Of a stretch of 64,000 nucleotides of DNA, positions 1-63,652 are shown one piece after another. The stretch is from assembly GCA_024679065.1 (NCBI GenBank), contig JAGIQG010000009.1, positions 31,248,001-31,312,000 of the forward strand, written 5' to 3'. The translations under genes were made by a program, and so were the position numbers. The notes beneath the pieces were generated by a model. The model had not been told where the DNA came from, made no database searches, and was given only the letters and a program-made list of their open reading frames with translations. Within the stretch, counting starts at the first letter, position 1. Each line of letters begins with the position of its first letter. This DNA comes from Sphyrna mokarran. Taxonomy: Eukaryota.

Positions 1-297
1 CTGGCTATTCAGGTAAGTCTTAAGCGATCCCAGCATGTCCATTTCCACCACCCCACTTGGCAGTGCATTCCACTGTGTGTAAAAAACATCCCTCTGATAT
101 CTGAGTTATACCTCGCCCCTCTCATTTTGAGCCTATGACCCCTCGTGATTGTCACCTCCAATATGAGAAAAAATTTCCCACTGTTCACTCTATCTATACC
201 TTCATAATTTTGTACACCTCTATTAGGTCTCCCCTCATTCTCCATCTTTCCAGGGAAAACAACCCCAGTTTACCCAATCTCTCCTCATAGTTAAGAC
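1..297 (-). mobile_element. CR1-clade LINE ORF2 3' fragment (decayed)
   Basis: Minus strand reads like CR1 RT C-terminus (GDLIEVYKIM..GIDRV, RGHRLK, FFT); similar to 31215-31514. Confidence 0.75.
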
Positions 298-959
298 CAC
301 ATTACTGGGGTTTTTTTTGGCTGGACAATTGGTGTCCTAATCTGTTCATCATAACTTAGAGCTAACCTTGCCCTCCTGTGAACCATCTTTCATAGAATCC
401 CAACAGTGCAGGAGGAGACAATTTGGCCCATTGAGTCTCGACTAATTCTCTGACAAAGCATCTCACCCAGGATCCATCCCTGTAACCTCACGTACTTACT
501 CCGTTAATCCAAACTGAAAGGGTTAATAATCACACAAGTATATAAAAAAAAATCACATTAGCTGCAAGTTGAACCTCAGTCGCAGAAGGAAAGGTATGTG
601 CAAGTGACAGGTTTTGATTAAAGTAAGCCTGGGACACTGAGGGGCTCTGTGGTGCAGAGGTGCCCCTGCTGTTCCTGCATCCACAGAAATGAAAATATTA
701 GAGAATGCTATCACTTTTTTTTTCAGCAACTACCATTGATTCTGTTAGGAACCACTGATCAGGTTGCTCAAAACTTGGACCAGGATTTTACATTCCTCCA
801 CCGATGGGTTCTTAGGCAAAGGGTGGTGGCGGGGGGGGGGGGGGGGGCAGGCAGAGGTGGGGGGGGGTGCAACATGACATTGAAAGGACAGGTAACTGCC
901 TGGGTTCCCACTGCCTCAATGCCATAGTGATAAGGACTTGGATAAGGACTTGGTCAGGA

Positions 960-1520
960 AGTCCGCCCTTTCCCTAGTTGAGGTCCTTAAGTGCACAATC
1001 ATTGGTCCCTGAAGGGATATTTCCCACCCATCCCCAATTTTTATGCTGGTGGGAAGATTGGACTTCTGCGGGGAAAGCCTGAAAAAGATGTATTTTGGGT
1101 GTGAAGGGGGACCTCCCTCTAAATTTCCCCCACATCTCCTGCTCCCTTAAGGTCCAATGGTATCCAGACTTTCCTCCTCCCCCGTACCTGCCCCCAAGTT
1201 TGGGAAAGCCTCCTTTATGCTGCTCCAGGTCTTCCCTATCCACTATACTCTGGGACCGCTACCTAGATCACCAGTGCCTGGATCTTGGCTCCAACATCCT
1301 CCTGCATTTCTTCTTCCATCCACTTTGGCACTGTTGCTGCAAGGACTTGAGAGACACCGGCCAACATTAGAGCCAGACTTCCTCCCAGGTGAAGGATGGA
1401 GAGGAGGTTCCTGCTTAAAGCCATCTAATACAATCGGACATGAAATGGCTTAAGACCACTCAGATTCAAAGGACATATGTTTCCCACCAATCTTCAGATG
1501 GCAAGATGCAAAATCCCATC
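960..1520 (-). mobile_element. Possible L1/Tx1-type LINE ORF2 C-terminal remnant
   Basis: Decayed motifs SGLKPFHVRLY*MAL and RSPFTPKI..F..W...I...LKDL resemble the fish L1 ORF2 C-terminus; weak. Confidence 0.35.
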
Positions 1521-1882
1521 ATCCAACAAATTCAGGTTTAAGAGCAACTGGATAGAGCCCACATAAAGCAACTTCTGTCACAGTAGCTTCATTGCAATGT
1601 GAAAGTAAATCTATTTATGACACTAATAATTATTTATGAACTTCAAAATTTGTTGACAAAATTCACTTGAAGTTCCACAATCAGCATCAGGGCCTTGATT
1701 TGCATAAACAAATCATTTGCCAGATTTCTGGTAGAGATCAGACACCAAATAATCACAACTTGCAATACCTGGGGCGTTCCCGCAATGCCTCCACCCCCCA
1801 AAGTTATCTGATGCAAGATTTTCCCATTGCACGTAAATTCTAATTGTTAACATCCCTTTAAATAGAGATAAGTATGTTATTA

Positions 1883-2186
1883 TGGTGGCACAGTGGTTTG
1901 CACTGCTGCCTCACACTACCAGGGATCCGGTTTAATTTGGCTCAGGTCATTGCCTGTGTGAAGTCTGCATGTTCTTTCCATGTCTGCGGGGGTTCCCTTC
2001 AGATGCTCCAGTTTCCTCCCACAATGTAAAAGATGTGCAGGCTAGATACATTGGCCATGCAAAATTTTCCCTTAGTGTAACCCAAATATATGCTGGAGTT
2101 GTGGCGACTAGGGGATTGTCACAGTAACTTCATTACATTGTTCGTGTAAGCCTACTTGTGACACTAATAAATAAACTTTAAAACTT
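1883..2186 (+). mobile_element. tRNA-derived V-SINE, tail type B
   Basis: ggtggcacagtgg..cactgctgcctcac head, V-domain gtttcctcccaca..ttggccatgc, tail cacagtaacttcatt..gtaagcctacttgtgacactaataaa. Confidence 0.85.
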
Positions 2187-2469
2187 TATTATGATGAATA
2201 GGCGAGCAAGTGATTGTGATAGCAGCTCTGAGCAATGCAGGCTGTAATTCGTAACAACTTCAGTATTCCAAAAGGAAGTTAAATGAAATAACTTTTACAG
2301 TGAGGTTTTCATAAGGTAGCTTCTTGGTGTAAGCTTCTTTTATCTCATGACGATATTGCCATCTAGTGACCTCAGTGAGTATCTCAAATTGGTGACCAAC
2401 ATTCAGAGAGAAAATACGAAAAAAAATCTGGACGCTGAAACACTAACAATGAGTAGTGAGCACTAATTT

Positions 2470-2662
2470 CATATGGGAAATAATTGCTTGACCAACCTAA
2501 CTGATTTCTTCCAGAGGTGATGGAAAGTTAGACAGAGGTAACGCTATAGATGTAATTCACCTGCATCTCCAAAAGACCATGAAAGCTGCCACATAATAGA
2601 CTTATGAATAAAATCAGAAGATGCGGAGTCAGGCGACATGTAACAAACTGGACAGCTAATTG
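2470..2662 (+). mobile_element. Old CR1 RT fragment, first part (continues at about 6105)
   Basis: cttgaccaacctaactgatttctt..atagatgtaattcacctg (CLTNL..FF, DVIYLDF-like), ending at aattgg (NW). Confidence 0.6.
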
Positions 2663-2902
2663 GCATTACATTTTTCTGTTCTTTAAAATAAACGTACTAA
2701 TCAGGCACAAAGATTGGCGAAACAATATGAATTCCTTATTTGAAGGTAAGACAATATACAGACAGTGTTCATTAGGAGGTTACCAGGCCTCAACCACAGC
2801 TGCTTACAGGCTGATGGCAAACCATGGAACTATTACATGTTGAGGATGTTGACAGTAGTTTGGGATATACTCCCTTAAAGTGCATATCACCATATCACTA
2901 CA
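2663..2902 (-). repeat. 3' LTR of the Gypsy element
   Basis: Starts TGTAGTG on minus after aaaatgggaa; shares ataaacgtac.aatcag.ca.a and aaagtg..t.tca..at.tcac.a.a with 5404-5527. Confidence 0.6.
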
Positions 2903-5403
2903 TTCCCATTTTCTGAAATTAAGAGTTAATAAAAGAATCAAACTATTTACATGAAAGCAAAAAAAAAATGGTTTAGTGTCTGAATGTACTTCAATATATG
3001 ACAATAAATTTGTAAGTCTCTGGAACATATTGGTAATTTGCTTCTTTATCCAGCTTTCTTTATGGTAACATTTGCTGAGGCTGCTGTATGTTTGCAGAAT
3101 GCTAATTATCGTTGCTTTGCTTGTATTACATTTTAACAGTGTTCTAGTCACAGTAGGAATGCTTGGTGTTTCTGGTTATGACATTGTCCTCATTTGGGAA
3201 CAGTTTCATTATATTGTCATGCCATCTAATGTTCATGTTTGATGCAATCTTTGTTCTGGACACATGCTGATAATTTCTCTGGATTCAAGTACCATCAGTT
3301 GGATGTTATATTCGAACTTTCCAATATTCACGGTGGATCACATAACCTATATGCTGGCTCTGGGCATCTTTTGTCTTCCACTGTTTTTTCGATCAGGGAA
3401 TCATGTGTATCTGGGGAGCATCAACAAGTGACGTCTAGGGAAGTTTTTCACACTAGTCTGCTGAATGGTAATTCTGCATTGGTTTGCAGTGCAATGTTTG
3501 CAAAGATGATGTGGATGTACATATTCAGCTCAAGCAGTTGTGTGTAGCCTATTGGCTGATGATCTACAGAATTATATCATCTACCCCAGTGTTAGCATAA
3601 GGTTTCCAATCGTGCTGCTTGTGGTCACTGGACTTCACCATCATCTTGAGGATACTACGAAAAATGTCCAAGGAGATGCACTCACATGCTGGGATGCCTG
3701 TGGCGTCCACAATAGTAGTGACGCTTGTGTGTAATGGATCCCGGGGATGGAAGTTCTGAGACATTGTACCCAATGAGTTTAGCACTGGGCAGTCAAATCA
3801 CCATTTGTCACGTCTGTAAATATATACATTTCAATGTGCCAGTCGAAAGGATGCTTTGCACTGGTATCCACTTTTGCATATAAGTTATGCTGACCCTTCA
3901 TCTGATGGTGTCAAGGGCTTCTGTTGGCACTGATGCGGCAATGCATTCTTTGATGCTCATCAAGCTGAATGCCTATTCACTTTGAATGTTGATGTTCTGT
4001 GTCATTCTCATCATCATTAACTGATCAGAAAGCTTAGCTAACTATGTTGTGGATCTTGCATTTGCACTGTTTAGTATGTACTCTTGGTTGGTTAGAATGC
4101 TGTACCTGTCTGGTCTCTCTTTGTGGCTTCTCACAATTTCAAACTACTTGTTTTGGTCTTTGCCTTCTCTGTTGGCACTTCCACATGTCTTGCATACAGC
4201 ATTAAAAGCTTCAATCTATACCATTTAGTTTGGTGCAATAGGACATTGTGGAATGCTCCCACTGAGGTGGATGTTATCATGATCTTGTTTATTCTGTCAG
4301 CTAGCTCTGTCACCATGATGTTGCAAATATGTCCTTTATCTCGGAATCTACTTACTCCAAGTGGTGCCTTCAGAAGCTGAATTGATCTTTAAGTGTTGAC
4401 TAAAGTTTATCTGGATTTTTAAAATGATCTTCAGATAAGCCTGATGAATTTAGTCTGCAGAGGCCTTCAGTTCCCAAATCAAATTGTTATCTTGTGTGTC
4501 TAGATTGGAAATATTGAGGCCCAGAAAACACTAAAGAGATTTTTTTGCTTTCCAGTTGTGTGTTGGAAATTGTGTGGTCATCTTTTAATTTCTTGCATGA
4601 TTTCTAATGCTATCGGGATCTTTGACAACTATGTAAGTTTCTCCATCTTCTTTTGGAGTTAAGTTTGCTCCAAGTTCACAGAATCACAGAGTACCACAGT
4701 GCAGAAGAGGCTCTTCGGTCCATTGAATCTGCACCGATGCATGAAAGGCCCTGACCTGCCCACATAATCCCCGTTGCCCAGCATTTGGCCCATAACCTTG
4801 TGCAGTACTATTAGTTGTCACTGCCTTAGCTAGTCATGGGTTACTGCTTAACTACAATGGTGGCACTGCTGACTGCTTCCTGGTTTTGCTCAGCTTAACT
4901 CTAAGCTCCACCAATAAAGCGATGATTTAGGCAGATCTTTGAATATGAAAGCAAACAGTGATAAAAATGACTTTTTTTTACAGACTCCTTCTGGCTGCTG
5001 GGAGCTTTTAAGGGATGCATTCTACTTAGCTCAGTTTGCAGTACTTTCTTTCCCCAGAAGCAATAGTGATAGAATGCCTTTCCTGTCTAAGTTTTACTTA
5101 CAGGGAGAATCTCCAGACTTTGCTATTTCATTTCTGCTCCTGCTTGAACTTCACAGCAGATAGACTATTACTATTAAGCTCTGCTAAATTCAAACAATAT
5201 TACTGGGACATAATGCCTGCTGGCAAAGCATAACCCAGAACAGAAGTATAATGAGTAGAATCTCTACAAAGCTTCAGAATTCTTACACAGGGTGAGCTTT
5301 AATAGAAGTTCCACTTTCGCACCAGCTCTTTTCTTTTGCTGGATGCTAAGAGGTTGAAGTTGATATAATTTACAATCAAACCTTCAAAGCCACACTGCCA
5401 CCA

Positions 5404-7320: not shown

Positions 7321-7632
7321 CATAGAATCCCTACAGTGCAGAAGGAAGCCATTTGGCCCATCAAGTCTGCACTGACCACAATCTCAGCCAGGCCCTATTC
7401 CTGCAATCCTCCATACTTACCTTGCTAATCCCCGACACTAAATTTAATTTAACATGGCCAATCAACTTCACCTCCTAACTTGCAGATCTTTGGAGTGTGG
7501 AATGAAACCGGAACCCCTGGAGGAAACCCACACAGATACAAGGAAAATGTGCAAACTCTACGCACCCAAGGCCAGAATTGAACCCGGGTCCCTGACACAG
7601 TGTGAGGTACTACCACTGTGAGGTAGTGGTGG
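7321..7632 (-). mobile_element. HE1-like V-SINE, tail type A (CR1/HER1 tail)
   Basis: catagaatccctacagtgcagaagga tail, V-domain, tRNA head. Confidence 0.85.
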
Positions 7633-8482: not shown

Positions 8483-8835
8483 GGGAGGGTAATGGCCTAG
8501 GGATATTATCGCTATTAATCCAGAAAATCATTTAAAGTTGTGGGGACCCAGGTTCAAACCCTGCCATGGCGGATGACAGAATTTGAATTCAATAAAAAAA
8601 AGTGGACTTAAGAATCAACTGATGACCATGAAGCCATTGTTGATTGTTGAAAAAACCCAACTGGTTTGCTGATGTCCTTTAGGGAAGGAAATCTGCCATT
8701 CTTACCTGGTATGGCCCACATGTGACTCCAGAACCACAGCAATGTGATTGACTCTCAACTGTCCTCAGGCAACTAAGGATGGGCAATAAAAGCTGGCCTG
8801 CCAGTGACGCTCATGTCCCATGGATGAATGAAAGA
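8483..8835 (+). mobile_element. tRNA-headed SINE (type C) with tail of the LINE family at 52109-56470
   Basis: B-box-like ggttcaaacc; tail ggcaactaaggatgggcaataaaagctggcc..cccatg shared with LINE ends at about 45530-45600 and 56410-56470. Confidence 0.8.
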
Positions 8836-13882: not shown

Positions 13883-14200
13883 CAGGTTATCACTGCTGCC
13901 TCACAGTACCAGGAACCTTGGTTCAATTCCGCCCTTGGGTGACTGTGTGGAGTTTGCATATTCTCTCCTGTATGCATGGGTTCCCTCCAGGTCCTCTGGT
14001 TTCCTCCACAGGCCAAAGAGGTTAGGCGGATTGGCTGTGTTAGATTGCTCCTTAGTGTCCCAAAGTGTGTAAATTAGGGAGATTAGCAGAGTAAGAGCAT
14101 GGGGTTACAGCAATAGGACCTGAGTGAGGTGCTTTGTTAGAGAATTAGTGCAGACTTGATGGGCCAAAAGGCCGTCTTTTGCACTGTAGAGATTCTATGA
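13883..14200 (+). mobile_element. HE1-like V-SINE, tail type A
   Basis: ggttcaattcc B-box, V-domain, ends gcactgtagagattctatg. Confidence 0.85.
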
Positions 14201-17270: not shown

Positions 17271-17585
17271 GGGTGGCATATTGGCACAATGGCTAGTACC
17301 ACTGCCTCATAACGCCAGGACCTAGGTTTGATTCACAGCTTGGGTCTCTGTCTGTGTGGAGTTTGCACATTCTCCCGGTATCTGCACGGGTTTCCTCCAG
17401 GTGCTCCGGTTTCCTCCCACAGTCCAAAGACATGCTGGTTGGGTGCATTGGCCATGCAAACTTTTCTCTCAGTGTACTCAAACAGGTGCCGGAGTATGGC
17501 GACCAGGGAACTTTCACAGTAACTTTATTGCAGTGTTAATGTAAGCCTACTTGTGACACTAATAAATAAACTTTAAACTTAAACT
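17271..17585 (+). mobile_element. V-SINE, tail type B (well preserved)
   Basis: Full head, V-domain and B tail ending aataaataaactttaaacttaaact. Confidence 0.9.
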
Positions 17586-18239: not shown

Positions 18240-18558
18240 TTCTTCCATGTGGTTATCAGCATTTGTCACCCATCCATAATTGCCCTTGAACCAAGTGGCT
18301 TGCGAGGCCATTTCAGAGGGCAGTTAAATATCATTCACATTCATGCAAGCCAGATCAGTTAAGGATGGCAGATTTCCTGGAAATTAGTAAACCAGATGGT
18401 TTTTAACAATATTCAACGATTTCTTGCTCACCATTGTAGAGACTAGTTTTTGATCCCAGATTTAAATTTAAACTTAACCAGCTACCATGGTGGGATTTGA
18501 ACTTGTGCCTAAGAGCCTGGGCCTCCTGAAAACTAGGCCAGAGATATGGCCACTGCAA
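18240..18558 (-). mobile_element. tRNA-headed SINE type C
   Basis: Reverse-complement similarity to 8483-8835 (gttcaaatcccaccatggtagctgg, aggaaatctgccatcc, caagggcaattatggatggg). Confidence 0.7.
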
Positions 18559-27500: not shown

Positions 27501-27529
27501 ATCGGAATATTGTCAGCACCCATAGCCTT

Positions 27530-27975
27530 TGCAGTATCCAGTGTCTTCAGCCTTTTCTTGATTTCATGTGGAGTGAATCCAATTGGCTGAAGTCTGACAT
27601 CTGTGATGCTCAGGACTTCTGGAGGAGGCCACGATAGAATCCCCACTTGGCACTTCTAACCGAAGATTGTCATGAATGTTTCAGCTTTATCTTTTGAACA
27701 GATATATTGGGCTCCTCCACCATTTGTGGAGTGTCCTCCTCCAGTGAGTTGTTTAATGGTCTATCTCTGTTCAAGGCTGGATGTGGCATGACTGCAGAGC
27801 TTAGATCTGATCCATTAGTTGTGGGGGTTGCTTGGCTCTCTCTTACATACTGCTAATGCTGTTTGGCATGCAAGTAGTCTAGCATTGTAGTTTCACCAAG
27901 TTGACACCTTATTTTTAGTTATGCCAGGTGTTGCTCCTGGCATGTTCACCTGCTTTCTTCATTGAACCAAGGTTG
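27530..27975 (-). mobile_element. Fragment of the 52109-56470 LINE family
   Basis: Reverse-complement similarity to 53210-53530 (ggttcaat.aag..gcagg.gagcatgccagga; agatctaag.tct.cagtc.tgccac). Confidence 0.65.
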
Positions 27976-28114
27976 ATTAGATATTGTGCTCTCTGGAATC
28001 TCCACAGCCTCGGAAAGGAACAGAGTAATGAATGGAGACTTGTACAAAATCAGATAGAAGCAATGCTGAGAATTACTCCAATGTATCTTCCATACCTTAC
28101 ATTATGCAGTAGAC

Positions 28115-31108: not shown

Positions 31109-33960
31109 TCAGTTTTCTATACCCCTCCATTCCCATTCTGTTCATGTGCCCATCTAAGCATCTCTTAAATAACTCCAGAGTGCCAGCCTCCACCACTTTA
31201 CTTGGCAGCGCATTCTATACCTCCACCACCCTCTGTGTGAAAAAACTCCCTCTAGCATCCAAATTATACCTTACCTCCCTCACCCTAAGCCCGTGACTCC
31301 TTGTGCTATTTGAGTCCATCCTAGGAAAAAGCTTAACCCTGTTTACTCTATCTATACCCCTCATAATCTTGTACACCTCTATTAGATCTCCTCTAAGTCT
31401 ACGTCTTTCTAAGGAAAACAGTCCCAATTTGCCTAACCTCTCCTTGTAACTCAGACCTTCCATACCAGGCAGCATCCTGGTAAACCTCCTCTGCACTCTC
31501 TCCAGAGTCTCCACATCCTTCCGGTAGTAAGGCGACCAGAACTAGACGCAATATTCCAAATGAAGTCTAACCAACATTTTATACAACTACAACATTAAAG
31601 GCCAGCTCTTGTACTCTATACCCCTTCCTATAAAGGCTAGCATACCATATGCTTTCTTCACAATCTTCTCCACCTGCTCTGCCACCTTCAGAGACTTGTT
31701 CACCTGCACCCCCAGGTCCCTCTGCATTTCTATACTCTTAATAGTTCTACCCTTTATCATATACCTCCCCCCAACATTCTTTCTCCCAAAATGCATCACC
31801 TCACATTTATCACGATTGAATTCCATCTACCATCTATCTGCCCAAGCTACCAGCCTATCTATGTCCTGCTGCATTGCCTGACAATGCTCCTCACTATCCG
31901 CAAGTCCAGCCATCTTTGTATCGTCTGCAAACTTGCTGATCACTCCACCTACTCCCTCTTCCAAGTCATTTATATATATTACAAATAGAAGAGGTCCCAG
32001 TACCAAGCCCTGTGGCACACCACTAGTGACCGACCTCCAGCTAGAAAAACACCCTTCCACTACTACTCTCTGTCTCCTGTTACTAAGCCAGTTACTTATC
32101 CATCTAGCTACCTGTCCTCATATCCCATTAGCCTTGACCTTTTCAACTAACCTCCCATGAGGGACTTTGTCAAACGCCTTACTAAAATCCATATAGACGA
32201 CATCAACAGCTCGCCTTTCATCGACCATTTTCATCACCTCCTCAAAATATTGATGGAGATTTGTAAGGTACGACCTCCCTTTAACAAAGCCATGCTCCGT
32301 ATCCCTAATCAGATCGCAACGCTCTAAGTGCCTATATATCCTATCTCTAAGAATATCCTCCAACAGCTTCCCTACCACTGACGTCAAACTCACCGACCTA
32401 TAATTTCCAGGGTTACCCCTACTACCCTTTTTAAAACAATGGTACAACATCAGCTATTCTCCAGTCCTCTGGAACCTCACCTGTGTCCAAAGAAAAGACA
32501 AAGATTTGCATCAGAGGCCCAGCAATCTCACCTCATACCTCCCTAAGCAGCCTGGGATAAATGCTATCAGGCCCTGGAGATTTATCAGTTTTAATGCTAC
32601 CTAGAAGCTCTAACACTTCTTCCCTCGGTATGGATATTTCCCTCAATTGGTCTACAGCTCCCTCAGAGACAGGAGCTGTCAACAAGCCCCTCTCCTTTGT
32701 TAATACCGAAGCAAAGTATTCATTCAGGATCTCCGCCATTTCCTCGGGCTCTAAGCACAGTTCCCCTCCTCTGACCCTAAGAGGTCCGGTATTTCCTCTA
32801 ACCACCCTTTTATTCCTAACATAAGAGTAAAAAGCCTTTGGATTTTCCTTAATACTATCCACCAAAACCATTTCATGCCCCCTTCTTGCCCTTCTAACTC
32901 CCCGTCTGAGCTCCCTCCTACTCTCTCTATATTCCTCCAATGCTCTCTCCGTTCCCAGCTGCTTTGACCTATCACATGCCTCTCTTTTCTTCCTAACCAA
33001 GTCCTCAATATCCCTAGTAATCCACGGCTCTCTAATCCTACCTTTCCCATCTTTCCTTTTAGCCGGCACATATCTAACTTGCAACATTTTCAGTATTCCC
33101 TTGAAAGAGTCCCATATGCCTAGCGTGGACTTACCCTCGAACAACCGTTCCCAATCAGTTTCCATAAGTTCCTGCCTAATCCGACCATAGTTAGCCTTCC
33201 CCCAATTCAGTACCCTGCCCCTAGGGCAACAAGCATCCTTTTCCATCTGTATCCTAAAGTAGACAGAATTGTGGTCACTGTTAACCACATGTTCCCCTAC
33301 TACAACATCAACCACCTGCCCTGGCTCATTACTCAGAACTAAATCCAATATAGCCCCTCTCTAGTCGGGCTAGCCACATACTGCTCCAACGATCCTTCCA
33401 GTATACATTTTACAAATTCCTCCCCGTCCAAACCCCCAGCTCTAGGTACTTTCCAATCCACCCTAGGGAGATTAAAATCTCCCACTATAACGACTCTGTT
33501 CTTTCTGCATCTATCCAAAATGTCTTTACATATGCCTTCTTCAACTACCTGCGGGCTGTTGGGTGGCCTATAATACACCCCTAGCATAGTAATTGCCCCC
33601 TTTCTATTCCTCAACTCCACCCACAGCGACTCCACTCCTAACTCCTCTGTATTGTCCTCCCTCTGCACCGCCGTGATGCTCTCCTTAACTAACAACGCCA
33701 CTCCTCCACCTCTTCTGGACCCTCCTCTGTCACGCCTGAAACACTTATACCCAGGAATGTTCAGTTGCCACTGCTCCCCTTCCTTTAACCACGTCTCCGT
33801 CACCGCAACCACATCCAAGTTCCTCACAAACATTAAGGCCCTAAGTTCATCCATTTTTCCTGTTACGCTCCTCGCATTGAAACAGACACACTCCAGACCT
33901 CCAAGCCCACTCAGAATCTCCTTCTCCTGGTGTATTTCCTCTCATCCAAGCTTACACTAT
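31109..33960 (-). pseudogene. CR1 ORF2 (APE + reverse transcriptase), broken by a few nonsense and frameshift changes
   Basis: VAVTETWL, YYRPP, VGDFN, SDHN, DFSKAFDKVPH, SGVPQG.VLGP, SKFADDTK, LERVQRRFTRM. Confidence 0.9.
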
Positions 33961-35780: not shown

Positions 35781-36504
35781 GTTGTGTTTCTTTCTATTTT
35801 TTCACAGGATCTAGGTGTTACTGGCCATACCAGCATTTGTTTCCCATCCTTGATTGGTCTTGGGAATGTGGTGGCGAACTGCCTTCTTAAACCACTGCAG
35901 TCCCTGCGCTGTAGGTATAGCCACAGTGCTGTTAGTTCCAGGATTTCAATCCAGCGGCAGAGAAGGAACAATGATATATATCACACAAATATCAGGGCTT
36001 ACTGTGCAGTGCAGTGCTGAGGGATTGCTGCTTTGTCAGAGATGTTGTCTGTCAAGTGAGGGATTAAACTTTGGCTCTACGCAGAATTCCTAAGCTTTAG
36101 GAGTTAGTTTTGTGCACCCTACATTATGGATCGCTGTCACTGTGGTGATAGGCTGCATGTCTAGAAGGTTCAAACAAACAAACAGCTTTAGTGAAAGGAT
36201 GTTAACACTACGGGCTGTTAAAATAGACTACCTGTGCATCTGCGCTAATGGCCAGTGATGGCTTCAGTGACATCACAGTGGTCACTCTCTTAAAATGCCT
36301 TGTTTCCCCTGCAAAACTGTGAGTGAGGAAACACTAGAAATAACATGAATACACAACAGTCACGACTTTGACCTTCTTTTGTAAGTTAGGACTTTCTGTT
36401 CTTCAAGTTGCGCAAGTATCTGTTTAGAAGCTGCAGCCAAGACACGAATCGCATTCAGTCATGGAGACAAGTGCTTTAACTGAATGTACTGAATATTTTC
36501 ACCA

Positions 36505-43575: not shown

Positions 43576-44429
43576 GATGTACTCAAGCCGGAATCAGGAT
43601 GGAGATCACTCATACCATATAGTCACAGCTCAAGGAAGTATAAAATGCCTCTCGTATAATGTTAAAGTTCCTTTAAATATGCCGAGAGAAGTCCAAGCAG
43701 GTTAAGGCCTGCATTCTCCATTGCATATTTGAAACAGGATAAAATTTCTCCTACCATACATTTGTGTCAATTTGTACCTGACTGTATTTTCCTGGAGGAC
43801 CTTTAATTTAATATTCCATTAGTATTCCATGAAAAGTAGGAGTCTTGATGTTTTTGAGAGGAAGAGACATTAGCTGCAGTTTTGTTAAGATTATCCAAAT
43901 ATTATGGATTGATAATATTATGAAGCAGCAAAAGGAGAAGTTGGGTAACTTTTAGAGATATCTGCTGTGGATAAGGCCCCAAAATTCCTGGAACTTTCAT
44001 GAAGAGTTAGCAGAGATGAGGACAAGGAGGTCAAGATTAATTGGAATGAAAGCCTCAGAGAGGATGGTGCAGATAATAAGGAGACAGTATAGGCAATTGT
44101 AATGGTTCTTTAACCACACCATTTCATTGTATCATAATTTCAGTCACGGTAAGTGAGGACACAGGAAACTAAACAGTTTGAAATAATTTGGAAGAAAAAC
44201 CCCACCTTCACACCATCTATATTCGCATAAATGACAAACTGTGAGTATCAATATGCCCCAGACACATCACTAATCTCAGAAAGAAACATTTCAGGAGCTC
44301 AGTTTTCAGAAAAAGTAACATTCAGGTGAACAATATTGACAACACACTCAGTGGAGACAATCTTCTTTTGTATTCTTGTTGATGGTTACAGAGTATTCAC
44401 CACTATTAAAAACCCCTTAGATACTTAAG

Positions 44430-45600
44430 TAGACAATGCCCGCTTACAGCAGAACCTGCACGATATTCAGGCTTAGCCTCATAAGTGGCAAATTACATAT
44501 GTAACCACACAAATTCTAACAGAACTAGACAGGATAGATGCAGAGGAGGTATTCCCAATGGTGGGGGAGTCCAGAACAAGGGGTTGCAGTCTGAGGATTT
44601 GGGGTAGACCATTTAGGGCAGAGGTGAAGAGACATTTCTATACCAAAGAGTGGTGAACCTGTGGAATTCATTATCACAGGAAGTAGTTGATGCCAAAACA
44701 TTGAATTTATTCAATAGATATAGCATTTAGGGCAAATGGAATCAAATGTTATGGAGAGAAAGCAGGATTAGACTATTGAATTGGACAATCGGCCATGATC
44801 GTAATGGTCAGTAGAGCAAGCTCAAAGGGCCAAATGGCCTCCTCCTGCTCCAAAGTTCTATGTTTCTATATTAAATGGGAGGCAATGGCCATCTCAGACA
44901 AGAGAAAATTGAATCATCTCCTCTTGCCATTCAGTAATATCAACATCACCAAATCCTGCACCATCAACATCCAGGGGTTACCACTAACTAGAAACTGAAC
45001 TGGACCAGCCACATAAATACTGTGGCTACATGAGCAGGAAGAGCTGGGAATTTTGCAGTGAATAACTCACTTCCTGACTCCCCAAAGATTGTCTACCATT
45101 TACAAGACACTTGTCAAGAATGTGATGAAATATACTTCTTGTTGGAATGAGTGCAACTCCAACAACAATAAAGAAGGTCCACGTTATGCAGAACAAAGCA
45201 GCCCACGTGATTAATGTCCCATCCACTACGTTCAACATTCACTCCCTCTACGACCAGTACGCAGTGACAGCAATGTGTATCATCTGCAAATTATTCTGCA
45301 GGAACTCACCAAGGCTTTTTTTGACAGAATCTTTCAAAAAATGACTTTTACCAACTAGAAGAACAAGGACAGCAGAAGCCCTGGAAAACCACCACCAGAC
45401 AACACATCATCCCAACTTGGAACAATATCAGCTTTTATTTACTGTTGCCAAGTTCAAAATCCTGAAACTCCCTTAACAAGGTATGGGTGACTGTGATGGT
45501 TGATGAAGATGGCTCATCATGATGTTTTTATGGGCAATTAGGAACGAGCAATAAATGCTGGCTGAGCCAGCAGTACTCACATCCATGAAAGAATATTTTT
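44430..45600 (+). mobile_element. 3' part of the 52109-56470 LINE family with a CR1 tail inserted at about 44520-44870
   Basis: Similar to 55020-56470; tail gggcaattaggaacgagcaataaatgctggc. Confidence 0.75.
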
Positions 45601-46714
45601 CAAAATGATGTAGGTTGGAGGATTTAATGACTACATTTGGAACTTATAATACATATTGAATACCCATGCTGTTGGCATCCCTCTGCATTGTTAACCAGCT
45701 GTCTAGCCAACTGAGCTAAATTGACATCTCCCCATACCAGCTGAGGTTATTCATGAAAATCCATCTTCTTCACCTTTCCCCTCACCTGCTGATCCTCAGG
45801 TTATATCAGCTCTTCCCTTTAAAAGTCATCTGGAACTATGGTGACTTTACGTACTGAATAAATACAACACTCTTTGATTATAATGGCTTCATCAATCTAG
45901 CCCTTTCTGATTTCAGCATAGGTGGCTAAGTAAAGTGTATCTGCACAAAGTTCATGATGCTATGAAGCAGGAGCCGCAAGGATATCAGGATTATCCAGCA
46001 TCATCTTGCTCCATGAAAAGTCCTTGGTATAGTCCCTGTGACCAAAGTCACAACCTTCAGATGTTGATGGCCCAGGATTTAGAAACCAGTGAGTATGTTG
46101 TTGTGTAAAAAGAGTTTTGGTACAAGGGATAGATGTGGTAATTAGGGATAGTGATAGGATATAATGAAGAAACAAGCAGTAAATGTGGAGAGTTTGGCAA
46201 TTGATTTGCTTATTAATCATTTTTAGGGAAGCTTTCGTTTCCCTTTAGTCCCCCCACCAGCGATGATCAGTGGCAGCCATGTGCACCATATGCAAGAAGC
46301 ATTGCAGAAACTTACCTAGGTTCCTCAGGCAGCATCATCCAAAGGACAAGAGCAGCAGATACCTGGAACACCACCGACTGACATTTTCCCTTCAAGTCAC
46401 TCACCATTCTGACTTGAGAATTGCCATTTCTTCACTGTCATTGGGTCAAAATCCAATTAAGGATGTGCAATAAATGCTGGCTTAGCCATGAGGTTGAGAT
46501 CCCATAAAACAATACATTCTAAAAGTGGCACAGTTGAATAGCTGGTAATGAGAGAGGCTTGCAACAAAGCTAATTGTGCAAGAGTATCCTGGCCAATATA
46601 AGTGTCAGGTATGAGACCTGATTGATTGAAACCTTTGGCAAATTAGTGATGGAGTTTTGTTGAATTGATGTCTGAGGCTCATGGTAAAGTTGGTAGAATG
46701 CAACATTTGAAGAA

Positions 46715-47284: not shown

Positions 47285-48424
47285 GTGAGCATTTTAGAAA
47301 TACAAGGTTGGCCAAAGTTTACCTTTTCAAAACCTTGCCGTATTAATATTCTCAGCTTGTAACACACAAGCTTAACATTTTTGCTGCATATTTTGGTGAA
47401 GAGAGACCTATCAATTTTACTTACCATCTGTGACTTTGGATGCCACAGTTAAATCCTGATGAACAGACAACTAGTTTGCCAAAAAGCACTTTATCTCAAC
47501 CTGGATTATATTAGGATTTCTAGTTTTGAGGAAATCAGTTAATTAGAAATGTTTATGTTGAAGCCTATTCAGTAATCAGTGAACACTCATTGTAAACAAC
47601 ATTGAAAACAGAACTAGTTAAGCTTTGAGTGTTACATGGATCATAGTTGATCAAAGTGCTTAGGTTTTTTTTAGAAAAACTGGTTTCATTGCCTAGATTA
47701 GGGGTGTGACCCAACAGAAGTGTCAAGCACTATGGTGACATTTTGTAATGTTGCAGAAATTTTCAATTAGGAAAGGATTGGCCTTTGCAGAAGATGAAGT
47801 GGGAAAAGATGGAACCTATCATTCTCCTGATCAAAGGACACCCAGGAGACAGGGGAGGTGGCACAGGACAATCTGTTGTCAGCATAAGATTGGGCAAAAA
47901 TTATCTACTTTTTCCAGATGAAAGAATGTGCCCACCATCTCTCCTCCAGAGCACACAATGTTATTGAGAAATTTTTACAGTACTCATAAGTAAAAATAAT
48001 TCAAATCACTCCTTAACATTTCAACTAAAGATGCTTTTAAACATTTATCCACAATTTTTAAAATTATTTCACAAGACAGCGTTAGGTTGGGCATGCATTT
48101 ATTGCCCATCACTAGCTGCCCTTGAGAAAGTGGTGCTGAGGTTCCTTCTTCAACCACTGCAGTCCATGTATTGTAGGTACACCCACAGGACTGTTAGAGA
48201 GAAAGTTCTAGGATTTCTATTCATTGACAGTGAAGGAATGGCAATATAACTCCAAGACAGGGTCATGCATGTCTTGCAGGGAAACTTGAAGATGGTGCTA
48301 ACCATCTTACTGTTGAGCCTTTCATCTTCCAAATACCCATGGTCAGGCAGAGAAGGGACACCAAGAGGTGATTAATGATGAAGACACACGAGCAAGAATT
48401 TTTCTGTGGACTTTGGGACCCCAA

Positions 48425-50230
48425 CATCATAGAAAATAGAAACATAGAAGAAAGAAGAAGACCATTTTTCGCTTCAAGCCTGCTCTGCCATTCATTACAA
48501 TCATAGCTGATCATCTAACTCAATAGCCTAATCCTGCTTTCTATCCATAACCTTTGATCCCATTCACCCCAAATGCTATATCCAGCCACCTCTTAAATGC
48601 ATTCAATGTTTTGGCATGAACTACTTCCTGTGGTAATGAAGTCCACAGGCTCACAACTCTTCTGATGAAAAATGTCTCCTCACCTTCTCCTAAATGGTCT
48701 ACCCTGAATCCTCAGACTGTGAACCCTGGATCTGGATTCCCCACCATTGGGAATATCTTCCCTGCATCTACCCTGTTTAGTCCTGATAGAATTTTATAAG
48801 TCTCTATGAGGTCCCCCTTCATTTGTCTGAACTCCAGTGAAAACAATCCTAACTTGATTAATCTCTCCTCATATATCAGTCCCAACATCCCTGGAATCAG
48901 CCTGATAAACCTTTAATGTACTCCCTTGAGAGCAAAAATATCCTTCCTCAGAAAAGAAGACCAAAACTGCACACAATACTCTAGGTGAGGACTCACGAAG
49001 GCCCAGTGTAATTGCAACAACACACCCCTGTTCCTGAACTTGAAATGTCTCGCAATGAAGGCAAACATGCTATTTGCCTTCTTTACTGTCTGCTGCACCT
49101 GCATGCTTACCTGCAGCGACTGGTGCACAAGGACACCCAGATCCCGCAGCATACTCCTCTCTCCCAATTCACAGCCATTCCAGTAGTAATCTGCCATTTT
49201 GTTTTTGCTTCCAAAGTAAATATCCTCACATTTATCCAAATTATACTGCATCATTGACTAGCCCATTGAACCAACTTGTCCAGATAATTCTGAAGGATCT
49301 CTGCATCCTTGTCAATGTTTACCACCCAACGTGGCATTATCTGCAAACTTTGAGATGTTAGATTTTGTTCCCTCATCCAGATCATTAATTCATATTGTGA
49401 ACAGCTGGGCTTCCAGCACTGATCCCGATGGCACTCCACTATTTACTGTCTGACAATTTGGAAAGCACCCATTAATTCCCATTTTTGTTTTCTTTCTGCC
49501 AGCCAGTTTTCTAATCATCTCAATACACTTCTTCCAATCCCATGCACTTTAATCCTGTATGATAATCTCTTGTGTGGAACTTTGTCAAACACCTTCTGAA
49601 AGTGCAAATATATTATATCTACTGGTTCCCCCTTGTCAACTCTACTGGTTACATCTTCGAAGAAATATAACAGATTTGTCAAGCATGATTTCCCCTTTAT
49701 AAACGCATGCTGACTCTATCTAATCCTGCCAATTGCTTTCTAAATCTCTGCTTTAAAGTCCTTGATAATGGATTTGATAATGGAGCGTTTTCCCCACTAC
49801 TGGTGTTAAGCTTACTGGTCTATAACTTTCTATTTTCTCTCTTCCTCTCTTTTTGAATATTGGAGTGACATTAGCTACCCTCCAATCTGAAGAGACTGTC
49901 CAGAGTCTATAGAACCCTGGAACATGACCACCAATGCATCTACTATTTCAAGAGCCACTTCCTTAAGTACCCTAGGCTGTAAATTATAGGGCACTGGGGA
50001 TTTATCTGTCTTTGATCCCATCAATTTTCCCAGCACCATTTCTCTACTAATATTGATCTCTCTGTCACTAAATCTTGTATTCTCCAACATTTCTGGCATT
50101 TGATTTTGCAAAGACAGAACCAAAGTATGTATTCAATTATTCAGTCATTTCTTTGTCATTATGCATTCCCCGTTTTTGTCTGTAGGGGACCTATGTTTGT
50201 CTTCATCATCCTCTTTCTCTTCATGTATCT
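48425..50230 (-). mobile_element. CR1 RT region and 3' end (decayed)
   Basis: DKSP.P..L.PRVLKEVA, KCE..YFG..RDLGVLVH..PHLEYCVQFWS; (ttctatg)-type tail at 48427-48450. Confidence 0.9.
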
Positions 50231-53200
50231 TTCAGGATAGCATGAGGCTCCTGAGTCTACACTTCCCAACAGCAGAACTTGCAATTCCTCCAAATTGGCC
50301 GCTTGCTTGCATATTAAGAATGGCAGTCAGGCTCCATAATGTAATGTGCAGACAGAAGCATGTGCCCAGGATCTGTGGGGCAGTGGGGGGTGGATTTCAG
50401 TTATTTTTTTCCAGTTGCAATCCTTTTTGCTGCTTGATTGATTTCCAAAGTCAGAAAGAAGGTTTTTAGAGATTCCTGTAAAAGATGGTTATTTCCTTTT
50501 TTGAAGGGCACTGCTTCTGACTTTGTACCATACACCTTCAATGTAGAACTTCCCATTATTTTTCCTTGCAGCACATGGACCAAGACATCTGGAAACCACT
50601 TGTCAATCTAGGGAGGCAATTACACAGGGTCGTTTAGATGAAATAGCCATTATGTTCCCTTGTCATTACCAGAGATGGTAATCAGTGCTTGGATGCGTTT
50701 AGAATTACCTTGTCTGAAACCACAAGTAATGGTTCCATTGTCCATTAGAGAAACAGCCTGCAGCCATTCCTGTCAGTGGCTAGCTGTGCATTTTTAGTCA
50801 CCTTTAGAGTTTGTGTCTGTTTTTTAAGAATATTAAACTCAAGTCTTTTCAAGATCTATTATTTCTCTTTATGATTCCATTGTTTTTTTCTTCATCATCA
50901 GGGGGTTCCTTCTACAAAGGCAGTACCTGATCAAGAGATCCTACATCGGGATGAAGACTTTTGCTGAGAACTTGCCCCTACTCCTTCCCTGTCAAATGCC
51001 TAATTGATGCACAATATGATGGGCCTTCCCAAAAAGAGATAATGTGGGACTCTCACTGGCTGTCTGGCCAGTGGCTGATATCCCATCGCCAGAACCCCAT
51101 CACCTCTCGTCCAGTGTGCATGAATTTTCATGAATATATAATTAAGCTTGGTAGCAAGGACTGCCACCACCTAATGATCCGCCAGTAGTCAGCATCTCAG
51201 CCCACAGTGAGAGAGAGTTGTATAACAGTGCCACAACACATCCTCACCTTCATAGTCCAGCACTTAGAGTTACAAAATACCTATGCTCCTTGGTTGCTGT
51301 TCCTCAAATAAAATCATCGCCCCTCAAAGTAGGAAATGCCCTGCTCATAGATTTAGGTAGTAATTTGTGTTTGTGCTTCTTTTTATTGTTGCCCCTTTAA
51401 AGTATGGAGTTTAAACCAGAAATGAACGATAAATGAACAATGAAATGAACTGCTACTACAGCTGAAGACAGTTGCTAAGGTGTAAAATTTATCCTGTACT
51501 TTAGAGATAAAAAATAATAATTGAGTAAAACAAAGCAGTTCTATCAAAAGTTGGATAAATCTTAACTAAAAGCCAAAGATTTAATTCTTAAATAACATGC
51601 ACAGAATAGTTCTAGTTGAGAAACAAGCAGTACCACAGGTGCAATGGGTTCATTTTCTTTCTCCTGTTATGTAATTGCTAAGGTTTTGCAATTCAATGCA
51701 TGCTTTGAGAATTTTAAAAAGTTAACCCATTCCTTTATGTATCATAATCACTAAATGCTGTGCAGTATGGTGATGTATAATATTAAGTAACAAAAAGGGT
51801 TACTTAATATCATATTTATATCTTATTCTTCCCCTGGTTTATTCACCTGATTGCATATTCTAGACCTGTACAAGATCACGTATTATGTGTTAAATTGCTG
51901 TACAGCATGAGTGGAAAAAGGACCAGATCAATTAAGGTCAAGCAATTCACACTAAATCCATCAATGTTCTATATATAAGCAATTATCTGTATTCGTCTCT
52001 GTGTAATACATACTTTTAGTATTCTCTTTTTAACATTCTATGAATACTGTACATTTTATCCTGTTTGTTCTGACATAAATTTGCTGAAAATTGTATTGTA
52101 TTGAAGAGAGGCGTGGAGTAATGGTAATGTCATTGGAATGGTGACCCAGATGCCCAGGCTAATTCTCTGGGGGACATGGGTTCAAATCTTGCCTTGGTAG
52201 CTGGTGAAATTTAAATTCAATCTAGAAGTCTCAGTAATTGTGATTATCGTAAAAACATATCTTGCTCATGAGGGGTGATCAGTCAGCCTAATGTTTATGC
52301 GAGATTCCAGACCCACAGCTTTGTAGTTGACTGTTAAAATGCCCTTTCAGCTGTATCAAACTGCTACAGGAAAAGGGTGATAAGAAATGAAACCAGATGG
52401 ACTACCTGCATTGGTATAGTACTAAAAACAACAACGGTTCTCTTGTCCCTATAAAGTCCTCTTTCTATGGAGAGAGTTGGTCCATTGACTACTCAAGCAA
52501 CAACCCCATACTCTTGAAATCATATCTTACATACAGTGCCCCGTCTCTGGCTATGTCCTGGTCCACTTATAGGATAGTAAAGCCAGAGGTTGTATGCCGT
52601 CGGTGGGAAATACCTTGGGACTTCTCAACATTGACTCTGGACTCCATGATGTCTCATGGCATTAGGTCAAACACGGACTAGGAGACTTTTTGTTGATTTC
52701 TACCTACCACATCCCCCCTCCCCCAGATGATGAATCAGTACTCTTCCATGAATTTCAGTTGGAAGAAGCGCTGAGGGTGGCAAGGGCACAGAATGTATTC
52801 TGGGTGGGGTATTTCAACATCCACCATCAAGAATGATGCAATAGCATCATTACTAACTGAGCTGGCTAATTCCTAATGGAATAATTTCTAATAGACATAA
52901 CTGCAAGATGATGAAGAATCGAGAAGAGGAAGAAGCATTCGAGACCTCATCCTCACCAATATAACTATTGCAGATCCACCAGTCCACGACAGTATTGGAA
53001 GTTACGAACACCGCACAGTCCGCTTCACATTGAAGATACCCTCCATAATGTTGTACGGCACTATCAATATGCTAAATGGGAAAGATTTCAAACAGATCTC
53101 GCAACTCAAAACCGTGCATCATTGAGCTGCTGTGGACCATCAGCAGCAGTAGAGTTATATTCAAACACAATCTGTAACCTAATGTCGCAGCATATCCCCT

Positions 53201-53939
53201 CAGAAGGATCAATTCTGGTTCAATAAAAGGTGCAGGAGAGCATGCCAGGAAGAGCACTTAGCATTCCTAAAATGTGCAACCTGGCAAAACTACAATATAG
53301 GACTATTTGCACACAAACAATGAAATCAGCTTATGATCGAGCAAAATGATCCCACAAGCAATGGATCAGATCTAAGTTCTACAGTCCTGCCACGTCCAAT
53401 CTTGAACAAATAAGTAACTAACTGGAGGAGGAGGCTCCACAAGAATCCCAGCCTCCATGATTGGGGAAACCAAGAAAAGTAATGCAAAAAATAAGCATTA
53501 CAATTACCTTCAGCCAAAAGTTCTTCTTGCATGATCAATCTCAGCCTGACATCTCCAGATACCAGCCTGCAGTCAATTCAATCCATTCCACACAATGTCA
53601 AGAAACAACTGAAGGTACTGGATACGACAGTTATAGACCCTAATAACATTCCAGTAATAGTATTGGAGACTTGTGCTCCAAAACCAGCTGCACCTTTAGC
53701 CAAGCTGTCCCAGAGCAACCACAAGATGGAATTCTACCTAACAGTGTGGAAATTGGCCCAGGTATATCCTGTAAACAAAAAGCAGGACAAATCCAACCTG
53801 GCCAATTACTGCTCCATTAGTCTACTCTCAATCAAAAGCAAAGCTTATGGAAATGGCTGTTCACCCAATCATGATCAAGTGGCACTTATTTATAATGAGT
53901 TAACTCTCTAATAATAGATGCTGAATATTTGTGTGAAGA

Positions 53940-54420
53940 GATTTTTTTTATTCATTTGTGGGACAGGTGGGTGCTGGCTGGCCAGCATTTATTGCCCATC
54001 CTTAGTTGTTCTTGAGAAGATGGTGGTGTGCTGCCTTCTTGAATTGCTGTAGTCCATGTGCTGTGGATTGACCCATAATGCCATTTGAGAGGAAATTCCA
54101 GGATTTTGATCCATTGACTGAGAAGGAACAGTGATATATTTCCAAGTCAGGGTGGCAGGTGGCTTGGAGGAGCAGTTGCAGGTAGTGGTGTTCCCAGGTA
54201 TCTGCTGCCCTTGTCTTTCTAGATGGTCATGGTCGTGGGTTTGGAAGGTGCTGTCCTGAGACCTTTGGTGAATTGCTGCAGTGCATCCTGTAGATAGTAC
54301 ACACTGCTGCTGCTACTGAGCATGCGTAGTAGAGAGAGTGAATGTTCGTAGATGTGGTACCAATTAAGTGGGCTGTTTTGTTCTGGGTGCTGTCAAGTTT
54401 CTTGAGATTATATTGTGTGT
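53940..54420 (-). mobile_element. Inverted 3' end of the same LINE family inserted in its RT region
   Basis: ggccagcatttattgcccatcc..; LKKLDSTQNKTAHLIG..IHSLY..CTIYRMHCSNSP. Confidence 0.8.
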
Positions 54421-55307
54421 ATGTAATAATGAAGCCACACAGAAAAAAAGTGTGGAGATTCATGAAGATGGACAGTCCTTGTTCTTTGTAATCTATGTGA
54501 GATTAATATATCTCCAGCCAGATTGCTCACTAAGAGTAAGACAACATCTTCCAAGACAACCCAACAACAATAAAACACCCAGCATTAATCTGCTCACTGA
54601 TGCACAGATTGGGTTCCACCAGGGCCATTTGTCTCCAGGTCTCATTAGAGCTCTAACCTAAACATGGACAAAAGAACCAAACTTACGAAGTGAGATGAGA
54701 TTGACGACTTGTGATATTAGTGTAATATTTGACAGAGTGCAGCATCAAGGAGCCCGAGCAAAACTTCAGCCAGTGGGAATCAAGGGAAAATCTTTCCATG
54801 GCTTGGAGCCAAACTTAACATAAACAAAGGTGATTGTGTAGCTGGAGGTCAATCATTTCAGTTGCAGGATAACACTGCTGAAGTTCCTTAGAATAGCATC
54901 CCAAGCACAACCATCTTCAACCACTTTATCAATAGCCTTTCCTCCATGATAGATCAGAAATTGGGATGTTCGTTGATGACTTCACTATATTCAGCAGCAT
55001 TCATGATTTATGAGATATGAAGCAGTCCATATCCATTTGCAGCAGACATGAATTCGTGCTTGGCATGATAAGTGGAAGTAAATTTGCATCAAGCAAATGC
55101 CAGACAATGACCTTCTCCAATAGGAAACAATCTACCATCGGCCCTTAACATTTAATGACATTACCATCACTAAAAGCCCCACTGTCACATCATGCAATTG
55201 CTATTGACCAGAAATGGAACCAGCTTTATGAATACTCTTGTTACAGGAACAGGTCACAAGTTCAGAATTTTGTGGCTAGTAACCCACCATCTGACTCCCC
55301 ACAGTTG

Positions 55308-55962
55308 TCATAAGAACATAAGAACATAAGAAATACAAGCAGAATTAGGCCATCTAGCCTCTTGAGCCTGCCCCACCATTCAATAAGACCATGGCTGATC
55401 TGAAGTGGATCAGTTCCACCTTCCCGCTTTCTCCCCGTAACTCTTAATTCCCTTGTCTATCAGAAACCTATCTACTCATGACTTAAATTTTTCAGTAGGG
55501 TAACCTCCACCACTTCAACAGGCAGAGAATTCCAGAGATTCACCACCCTTTGAGTGAAGAAGTTCTTCCTCAACTCCGATCTAAACTGCGCCCCCCCCCC
55601 TTATATTGAGGCTGTGCCCCCAAGTCCTGCTATCCTTTTTAAGCGAGAAGAATCTCTCTACCTCTACCCTATCTATCCCCTTCACTATCTTACATGTCTC
55701 TATAAAATCTCCCCTCAGCCTTCTAAACTCCAATGAGTATAGATCCAGTCTATTCAATCTCTCCTCATAGGCTAACTCCCTCATCTCCGGTATCAGTCTA
55801 GTGAACTTTCTCTGCACTCCTCCAAGGCCAAAATATCCTTCCGTAAATGCAACGACCAAAACTGCACACAGTACTTCAGCTGCAGCCTCACCAGTACCCT
55901 GTACAGTTGCAGCAAGACCTCCCTGCTTTTATATTCTATCCCCCTCGCGATAAAGGCAAATA
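55308..55962 (-). mobile_element. CR1 3' fragment inserted in the LINE
   Basis: VQRKFTRLIP..YEERLNRL.LYSLEFRRLRGD; (cataagaa)3 tail. Confidence 0.9.
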
Positions 55963-56943
55963 TCTAAAAGACACAAGTCAAGAATGTGGTGGAATACTCT
56001 CTACTTGCCTGGATGAATGCAGCTCCAACAACACAGAAGCTTGACACCATCCAAGACAAAGATTGGCATACCATCCACCACCTTAAGCATTCACTCCGTC
56101 CACCACTGAAATATAACGGCAACAATGTGTATCATCTACAAGATGCACTGCAGCAATTCATCAAGATTCCTTCAACAGTACCTGTCAAACCTGTGATTTC
56201 TACCACTTCAAAGTATAAGGGCTGCAATGCATGGGAATATTACCATCTGCAAGTTCCTCTGTAAATCACACACCATCCTGAGTTGGAACTATATCATTGT
56301 TCTTTCATTGTCATTGGGCAAAATCCTGGAACTCTCTCCCTAAGAGCACTGTGGGCATAAATGCCAGAGGGGTTGCAGTGGTTCAAGAAGCTGGCTCAGC
56401 ACCACCTTGTCAAGGCAATTAAAAGTGAGTAGTAAGTGCTGGGTTTATGAATGATATCTACATCATGTGAAAGAACTTTTGAAACTCATTTCATTAAGCT
56501 ATCAGCCTGATGAGAACCGTCATCAGTCCAATCTGGGATTGAGTTATGTTTCTGGAGGTAAAAAGATGTCATTGCGGCCCTTTAGATTAGTGAGTCTTTT
56601 AAGTTGGCTAAGTTGTTTTAGTGAAAAATTTGTCAAACAAGAACACATTATTTTTATGTATTATGATCAAGTTATAGCTATGTTACAACTGTAAAGTAAA
56701 AAAATTTGCGAAAAGAACAATCATTCCAATGAAAATGCTTGTATAAAAATACCAAAGTTGCTTGCAAAGCATTCGTTGAATCTTTAGTTGATATCTTTTG
56801 AACAAATCTATTTGTAACATATATTCTACGAGTAACTTATAGCTTCCTGATTAAGTAATTTTCTTCTATGTTTCATGGTAAGTGACATGAAGTCGGATTG
56901 TAAAGTTGATCATGGCTTTAAAGTGTTTCCAATTCTACTACAG

Positions 56944-63150: not shown

Positions 63151-63652
63151 GGCATTGATATCTCTTATAAAATAATGTGGCAGCAGCAGGAACAACTGCT
63201 GAGCAAGAACTTTTATAACAGATGGAGTTGCAGTTGTGAGGTTTATAATGTAGTTATGTTTTGGGACTGTGACTTACAGGTGGTAGTGGTCCCAGATATT
63301 TACTGCTTTTGTCTTTACTGGTGATAGAGATATGGGTTTCAAAGATGCTGCCAAAGGTGATTTAATGAGTTGCTGATAGAGTCCAGAGTCACAAGAAGGT
63401 GAGAATGTCAGGTTGTAAACATGTGTAATTTAAAATGTCCATTTTATTCCAAGATAGAATAAATTGAGGTCCAAAGATTAGCTAATTTCTACCTGGATAC
63501 AAAGCTCATGTGATTCACATCATCATGGATATGGACTTTGAGGGAGGAAGAAATTTTAAAATATCTCTGAAATTCACAGACAAGTTAATCTGCCTGGATT
63601 CGGGAGAGAGGGATTTACTAGAAGCCAAATGTCTCTATGACTGACTGTGCAT

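Follow-up and report, generated by a model that had tools for sequence, protein, structure and literature searches.

In the textbook division, long interspersed elements (LINEs) are transcribed by RNA polymerase II (Pol II) and short interspersed elements (SINEs) by Pol III. Here we analyse a LINE copy in a 64,000-nucleotide stretch of the Sphyrna mokarran genome (contig JAGIQG010000009.1, positions 31,248,001 to 31,312,000; hereafter the window), whose family opens with a tRNA-derived head. The closest described family is Zenon, of the CR1 group, which Stuart et al. 2026 reported from five elasmobranchs, the coelacanth and hagfish, with all members lacking ORF1 and carrying poly-A tails (PMC13343379; here and below, the portion of the text and supplement available to us). 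The five main elasmobranch consensuses measure 3244–3314 bp, against 3290 bp here, and likewise combine an apurinic/apyrimidinic endonuclease (APE) and a reverse transcriptase (RT) with an A tail and no ORF1. A table in that paper credits a few copies with an intact ORF2 (3 of 612 and 1 of 1419). Compared by eye over the first 400 nt, seven published consensuses from five elasmobranchs (CarCar, RhiTyp, ScyCan, HypSab and SquAca) open with the same head as our element; the coelacanth and two hagfish consensuses do not. Judged by this match, by length and by traits, the family is the elasmobranch Zenon already catalogued. It has a single APE–RT open reading frame (ORF), no ORF1 and a poly-A tail, and it is unlike canonical vertebrate CR1 in the last two respects and in its RT segments, which are about 30–37% identical to those of CR1 in the same genome. 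We are confident that the 5' architecture described below is a genuine, family-wide feature of this known family.

Also known are short elements that join the 5' end of a LINE without ORF1 to its 3' end, among them Bov-A/Bov-tA, RIME and the Vingi derivatives. The sources given for such bipartite elements by Kojima 2018 are RTE, Ingi, Vingi and R2 only, with a tRNA head added afterwards (PMC5786205). Unlike these, the CR1-group LINE here carries the head itself, so that its bipartite product is already a SINE. RTE-1_DAn and related elements are LINEs with a tRNA-like sequence that matches many tRNA-derived SINEs, but they belong by name to the RTE clade, and the position and function of that sequence are not stated (PMC5786205); in the literature searched, no other paper names RTE-1_DAn. 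The CmiSINEs and SacSINE1 also join a tRNA head to a LINE tail, but are described with tRNA-Ala/CORE or Deu bodies and an L2 tail, a distinction drawn from description, not sequence (PMC5499810, available in part).

What is new relative to the available part of PMC13343379 is that the head derives from a tRNA, that SINEs made of head and tail exist, that the consensuses are TTTT-free and depleted in T runs, and that an in-frame AUG is lacking. In that paper's available text and supplement (cells to 400 characters), the word 'tRNA' is absent and 'SINE' occurs only in reference and species names; a literature search, with Repbase and Dfam outside its scope, turned up no account of a Zenon with a tRNA head or of a LINE transcribed by Pol III. 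We think it probable that the window holds an old copy of an ORF1-less elasmobranch Zenon LINE whose tRNA-shaped head likely acts as a Pol III promoter and whose two ends likely persist in SINEs derived from it. An earlier reading of the window (the original prediction) had proposed that a captured tRNA head stands in for both the 5' untranslated region and ORF1. The tRNA head and the lack of ORF1 held up, but because Zenons as a whole are described as lacking ORF1, the head cannot be said to have replaced it.

Head, body and ORF as one transposing unit

The genome that holds the window (2.77 Gb) was searched with window positions 52100–52800. This returned 29 other loci, listed by their APE part, 19 of which had the head collinear upstream; the query contained the head, and the choice of candidates may therefore favour headed copies. 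The other ten (eight distinct) were truncated and headless, and the eight had no common alternative upstream sequence beyond two short matches. With a query on the head–APE junction, all 40 scored matches (from 4717 candidates) spanned it, and an exact 17-mer of the junction occurred 458 times in the genome against 0 for the control. The junction is identical across copies in this genome and across five species. It is thus not unique to this locus; uniqueness would have undone the original prediction.

A consensus built from 40 long stretches is 3290 bp long. Copies are mostly 82–89% identical, 28 of the 40 begin no more than 9 nt from base 1, and 23 have both ends. The consensus carries one ORF, from about 293 to 3232, that encodes APE and RT and contains two stops resembling CpG decay; Pfam matches fell on the APE part of one sister copy (PF14529, L082) and on the RT core of others (RVT_1). 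The endonuclease begins at consensus 428, right after the shared head, which leaves no room for ORF1, and full-length copies do not carry the conventional upstream ORF1 that would likewise have spoken against the original prediction. At the 3' end lie a predicted hairpin and an A run, and copies end in A runs, a poly-A tail and not a microsatellite. The closest named proteins are from sharks. There is an older subfamily, A (20 loci and the window copy), which is laid out like subfamily B and departs from it at 260 sites. Between the two, the ratio of nonsynonymous to synonymous change in the ORF (pN/pS, with CpG-type changes left out) is 0.24, so the ORF was under purifying selection, and headed elements encoded a working protein and were autonomous, as had been supposed. 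Head, body and one APE–RT ORF form a single transposing unit.

At its default threshold ARAGORN recognised an 88-nt tRNA in the subfamily A consensus head; for the B head it did so at 90%. The A and B boxes are kept in all four groups (LINE and SINE of A and B) and are recognisable by eye in the published elasmobranch heads, one of which has a gap in the B box. Compared with 53 tRNA genes under 17 labels from the same genome, the head is most like long-arm Ser-type genes, themselves retrieved by motif; the set holds no Leu, Tyr or Sec genes, and the Ser-type genes are candidate parents.

In dense clusters of tRNA genes (L101–L130 in G000:C446 and L135–L142 in G000:C982), Lys-Thr-Val and Ser genes recur, and some Ser-like genes there have altered anticodons. 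Viewed by eye in the available supplement of PMC13343379, the variable-arm hairpin of the head is different but still complementary in SquAca and missing in HypSab. Eight of the 40 copies are 5'-truncated at consensus 184–201 (L075, L080, L085, L086, L088, L092, L098 and L100; also L010 and L011) against 4 across 10–183. An alternative 5' end for these eight was rejected, as their flanks are unrelated at the junction. This cluster, with a long predicted helix immediately on its 5' side, may mark an RT stall point; the start of the query could bias the count.

Transcription and translation of the coding RNA

T runs stop Pol III. The check for internal terminators of four or more T that the original prediction had recommended found no TTTT on the sense strand of either subfamily consensus, each of which has 15 A runs of at least 4. 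The B ORF contains 3 TTT runs where synonymous shuffles predict 12.6, and none of 5000 shuffles fell that low. In B, no other of the 64 trinucleotides is as depleted as TTT, and phenylalanine is encoded twice by TTT and 16 times by TTC. Phenylalanine itself makes up 1.8% of the protein, against 2.2–7.3% in 33 relatives. Decayed copies of the element carry 0.73 TTTT per kb. All 17 scored CR1 ORFs from the same genome contain TTTT, at about 3.6 per kb, and 16 of them show no clear TTT depletion (one of the 17 rows is a hybrid with this element). The search for a control of matching composition yielded no Rex1 or L2 RT. A metagenome scan with the relative P0040 returned 13 loci of 24–47% identity, too distant and T-rich for a fair control; ARAGORN found no tRNA in these, and the seven inspected held 11–42 TTTT runs.

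Other results weigh against our interpretation. Absence of TTTT is by itself not significant (P 0.083–0.106), only 8 synonymous sites are able to create it, and the element is T-poor (21% T against 23–29% in the CR1 controls). In subfamily A, TTT is only the fifth most depleted trinucleotide (8 against 14.6). Rfam found no credible tRNA on single copies, and in the analysis of target-site duplications the 19 two-ended copies scored 5.4 against 5.1 for mismatched flanks, none above control. Weighing both sides, we place the proposal that Pol III makes the full 3.3-kb coding RNA at an even balance.

A credible but less favoured alternative retains the same anatomy and assigns the coding RNA to Pol II, through a body promoter or read-through from the host. 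In that case the tRNA fold would be kept for another role, for example in processing, in stability or in recruiting ribosomes, with Pol III use confined to the SINEs. Pol II generally transcribes LINEs (PMC5786205), which agrees with this alternative, as does the TTTT statistic taken alone (P ~0.09). The first 330 nt fold strongly (z −4.5), but ORF windows do so too (z −4.5 and −3.9). Harder to reconcile with Pol II are the exact starts at base 1, just ahead of the A box, in 28 of 40 copies, the retention of both boxes in both subfamilies and their recognisable presence in published heads, the depletion of TTT over the whole ORF, and the lack of an in-frame AUG.

No in-frame AUG precedes the first catalytic motif of the endonuclease in the consensus, whereas the records of relatives of about 960–980 residues (P0011 and P0040) show a Met ahead of that motif. 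An ATG at consensus 348 survives in 37 of 40 B copies and 10 of 14 A copies, and is also present in the published elasmobranch heads that reach that far. Its distance to the Asn codon of the motif has a mode of 95 nt in B and 92 nt in A, out of frame in both, and the 3-nt indel between A and B preserves the frame. Around this ATG, with CpG decay discounted, the endonuclease frame stays open and encodes an Arg-rich extension resembling the N-terminus of P0011, whose Met stands at about the same distance. A homologue search for longer proteins gave one match, and no canonical slippery heptamer was seen by eye. The missing in-frame AUG and the frame-preserving indel suggest that initiation is likely non-AUG or involves a −1 shift. 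Two other explanations were set aside: two B masters behind the mixed 94/95-nt spacing were rejected in favour of scattered single deletions, and stop–restart from the upstream ORF is unlikely because its stop lies inside the endonuclease and shifts position between subfamilies. If uncapped, the RNA would depend on initiation of this non-AUG or shifted kind, a route also put forward for R2 and L1Tc, LINE RNAs that lack a cap and whose structured 5' end is thought to permit cap-independent translation (PMC6765202, available in part). Those RNAs are freed from a co-transcript by a hepatitis delta virus (HDV)-like ribozyme (PMC6765202); Rfam matched no HDV-like ribozyme at the 5' end of 7 decayed copies.

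Under the Pol III interpretation, an ancestral Zenon ORF would have been joined to a tRNA-derived SINE in the shark–ray ancestor, and the variable A-rich linker may be the old tail of the donor SINE. Pol III would start at base 1, read through thanks to the purging of T runs and stop in flanking DNA. Translation of the uncapped RNA would be cap-independent, beginning at a non-AUG codon in the Arg-rich frame or at the conserved AUG with a −1 shift, aided by the folded 5' region. The protein would recognise the 3' hairpin and A tail and prime reverse transcription at the target, and deletions would leave a ready-made SINE, promoter and tail included. We advance the combined claim tentatively, as just short of even: that sharks and rays harbour an autonomous vertebrate LINE lineage that makes a 3.3-kb RT mRNA with Pol III from a captured tRNA promoter, with terminators purged, uncapped AUG-less translation, and SINEs arising by simple deletion.

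If Pol III does transcribe it, the element would be very unusual among protein-coding elements: it would offer a long coding RNA made naturally by Pol III, on which initiation independent of cap and AUG could be tested. A direct birth of SINEs, through nothing more than deletion, would reverse the order proposed for bipartite SINEs and extend them to the CR1 group. Even with Pol II, a parent has been found for thousands of shark SINE copies and a so far unannotated tRNA head added to a published family.

Origin of the head-plus-tail SINEs

The short elements have the features of tRNA-derived SINEs, namely a head with A and B boxes and a 3' tail common to a partner LINE. They consist of the first 289–315 nt and the last ~70 nt of the LINE and nothing else, joined at consensus 315, 297 or 289, in agreement with the earlier proposal that the SINE equals the LINE 5' end plus its 3' end. 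Among 127 head-bearing elements, 72 run from head to tail, 46 from head to APE and 9 fall in neither class. Exact junction motifs for two of the three classes matched the genome 1588 and 1855 times.

We examined SINE origin in 100 of the 127 elements (near-complete heads, duplicates out), with head and tail references drawn from LINE copies only. Head and tail matched the same LINE subfamily in 59 of 63 SINEs (Fisher P 3e-11), which indicates that LINE and SINE have shared both ends through time. About ten head sites unite B LINEs and B SINEs against both A groups (groups taken from a tree), and the 289 junction sits on a 3-nt microhomology. The simplest account is that the SINEs arose from the LINE through deletion, and we hold it to be quite probable.

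These same three observations speak against a less probable alternative, in which the SINEs are not fresh deletions but an unbroken lineage that passed on its head a single time and afterwards exchanged ends with the LINE through template switching. Such a lineage would nevertheless fit an approximately unbiased test on the 100 head copies, in which SINEs as one clade were not rejected (p 0.75) and the constrained tree outscored the free search. It would also fit shared departures of B SINEs from B LINEs, among them those at positions 50, 54 and 137. The two subfamilies have junction classes in common (315 in 7 and 7, 289 in 4 and 35), which suits end exchange as well as repeated deletion. The internal-deletion origin proposed earlier therefore survives as the best reading, with end exchange by template switching a possible alternative to repeated deletion. 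Four further loci (L064, L095, L264 and L263) have both ends and large internal gaps, for example from consensus 706 to 3232 or 1696 to 3072, and are possible intermediate deletion derivatives.

A third explanation, in which headed copies are repeated SINE–LINE chimeras of a master with a conventional 5' end or ORF1, would accommodate the ten headless loci and the small-RNA chimaeric insertions known for L1 (PMC13174262, available in part), but is largely refuted and very improbable given the lack of common sequence upstream of the eight distinct headless loci, the identical junction across copies and five species, and selection on the ORF between headed subfamilies.

The window copy and neighbouring repeats

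The LINE copy in the window is old and twice interrupted, and aligns to the family consensus (3.29 kb with a single ORF) as three collinear pieces (table below). Relative to the original prediction, its start is nearer 52106 than 52109, its end lies at 56475 against 56470, and two insertions (53889–54576 and 55305–55961) had gone unmentioned.

Table. Features of the LINE copy and of two SINEs in the window
Feature	Position	Strand	Basis
tRNA-derived head, long variable arm, Ser-type	52106..52200	+	aligned to subfamily A consensus 1–95
A box; B box	~52114–52124; ~52179–52189	+	inside the window head
Body common to LINE and SINEs, several deletions	52201..52360	+	consensus 96–315
A-rich linker, conserved out-of-frame ATG (52387–52389), Arg-rich extension (decayed)	52361..52452	+	
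Decayed single ORF, 5' part: APE endonuclease, linker, RT start	52453..53888	+	
Later insertion: 5'-truncated subfamily B copy of the same LINE, antisense	53945..54406	-	86% to B consensus 2831–3290, 81% to A
Decayed ORF, RT core	54577..55304	+	75% to A consensus 1998–2744
Later insertion: 3' fragment of canonical CR1	55305..55961	-	55963–55493 matched by tblastn, CR1 part of P0002 as query, E 1e-38
ORF end and 3' tail common to SINEs	55962..56475	+	76% to A consensus 2755–3281
SINE, subfamily B, junction at consensus 289	8483..8835	+	85% to consensus 9–289; tail (8768–8833) 86% to 3224–3289
SINE, older, junction at ~consensus 315	18240..18558	-	A consensus 16–316 and 3215–3247; tail (18289–18257) 88% to A tail

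From 52108 to 53888 the copy is 68% identical to subfamily A consensus 3–1998. Endonuclease and RT remnants follow the head in broken frames. The first endonuclease strand starts 108 bp past 52345 in this deleted copy and 113–139 bp past the equivalent point in the consensus, where the original prediction had given about 130 bp for the passage from head to endonuclease. Beside the antisense insertion, 54407–54576 had no other match among the fetched loci. ARAGORN found 0 tRNA genes in the raw window.

The kinship of head 52109–52345 with the bodies of both SINEs was upheld: region 52050–52450 scored 97.5 against SINE 8483–8835 (300 shuffles, mean 38, maximum 60.5) and 102.5 against the minus-strand SINE 18240–18558 (mean 40, maximum 65.5). 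The shared 3' tail claimed for the three copies is clear through the family consensus (76–88%), but direct pairwise comparison of the window copy with the two SINEs gave 37.5 and 52.5, below the shuffle maxima of 66 and 59.

More truncated fragments of the same Zenon family lie at 27503–27977, 44381–45595, 46249–46488, 48085–48297, 35830–35982 and 63272–63375. In-frame pieces of the LINE ORF also occur in two annotated shark proteins, P0001 and P0007 (aldo-keto reductase-like and FERM domain 7-like), through exonisation or gene-model error. At L096:4645–6282, on the minus strand, a young CR1 has inserted in frame into a LINE copy, giving a hybrid open frame of 546 residues. A different and far more abundant repeat of about 300 bp, unrelated to the head, occupies window positions 1886–2182, 17282–17577, 7322–7594, 13885–14199 and many more, and long remnants of canonical CR1 ORF2 lie at 31128–32354 and 48580–49715, both on the minus strand.

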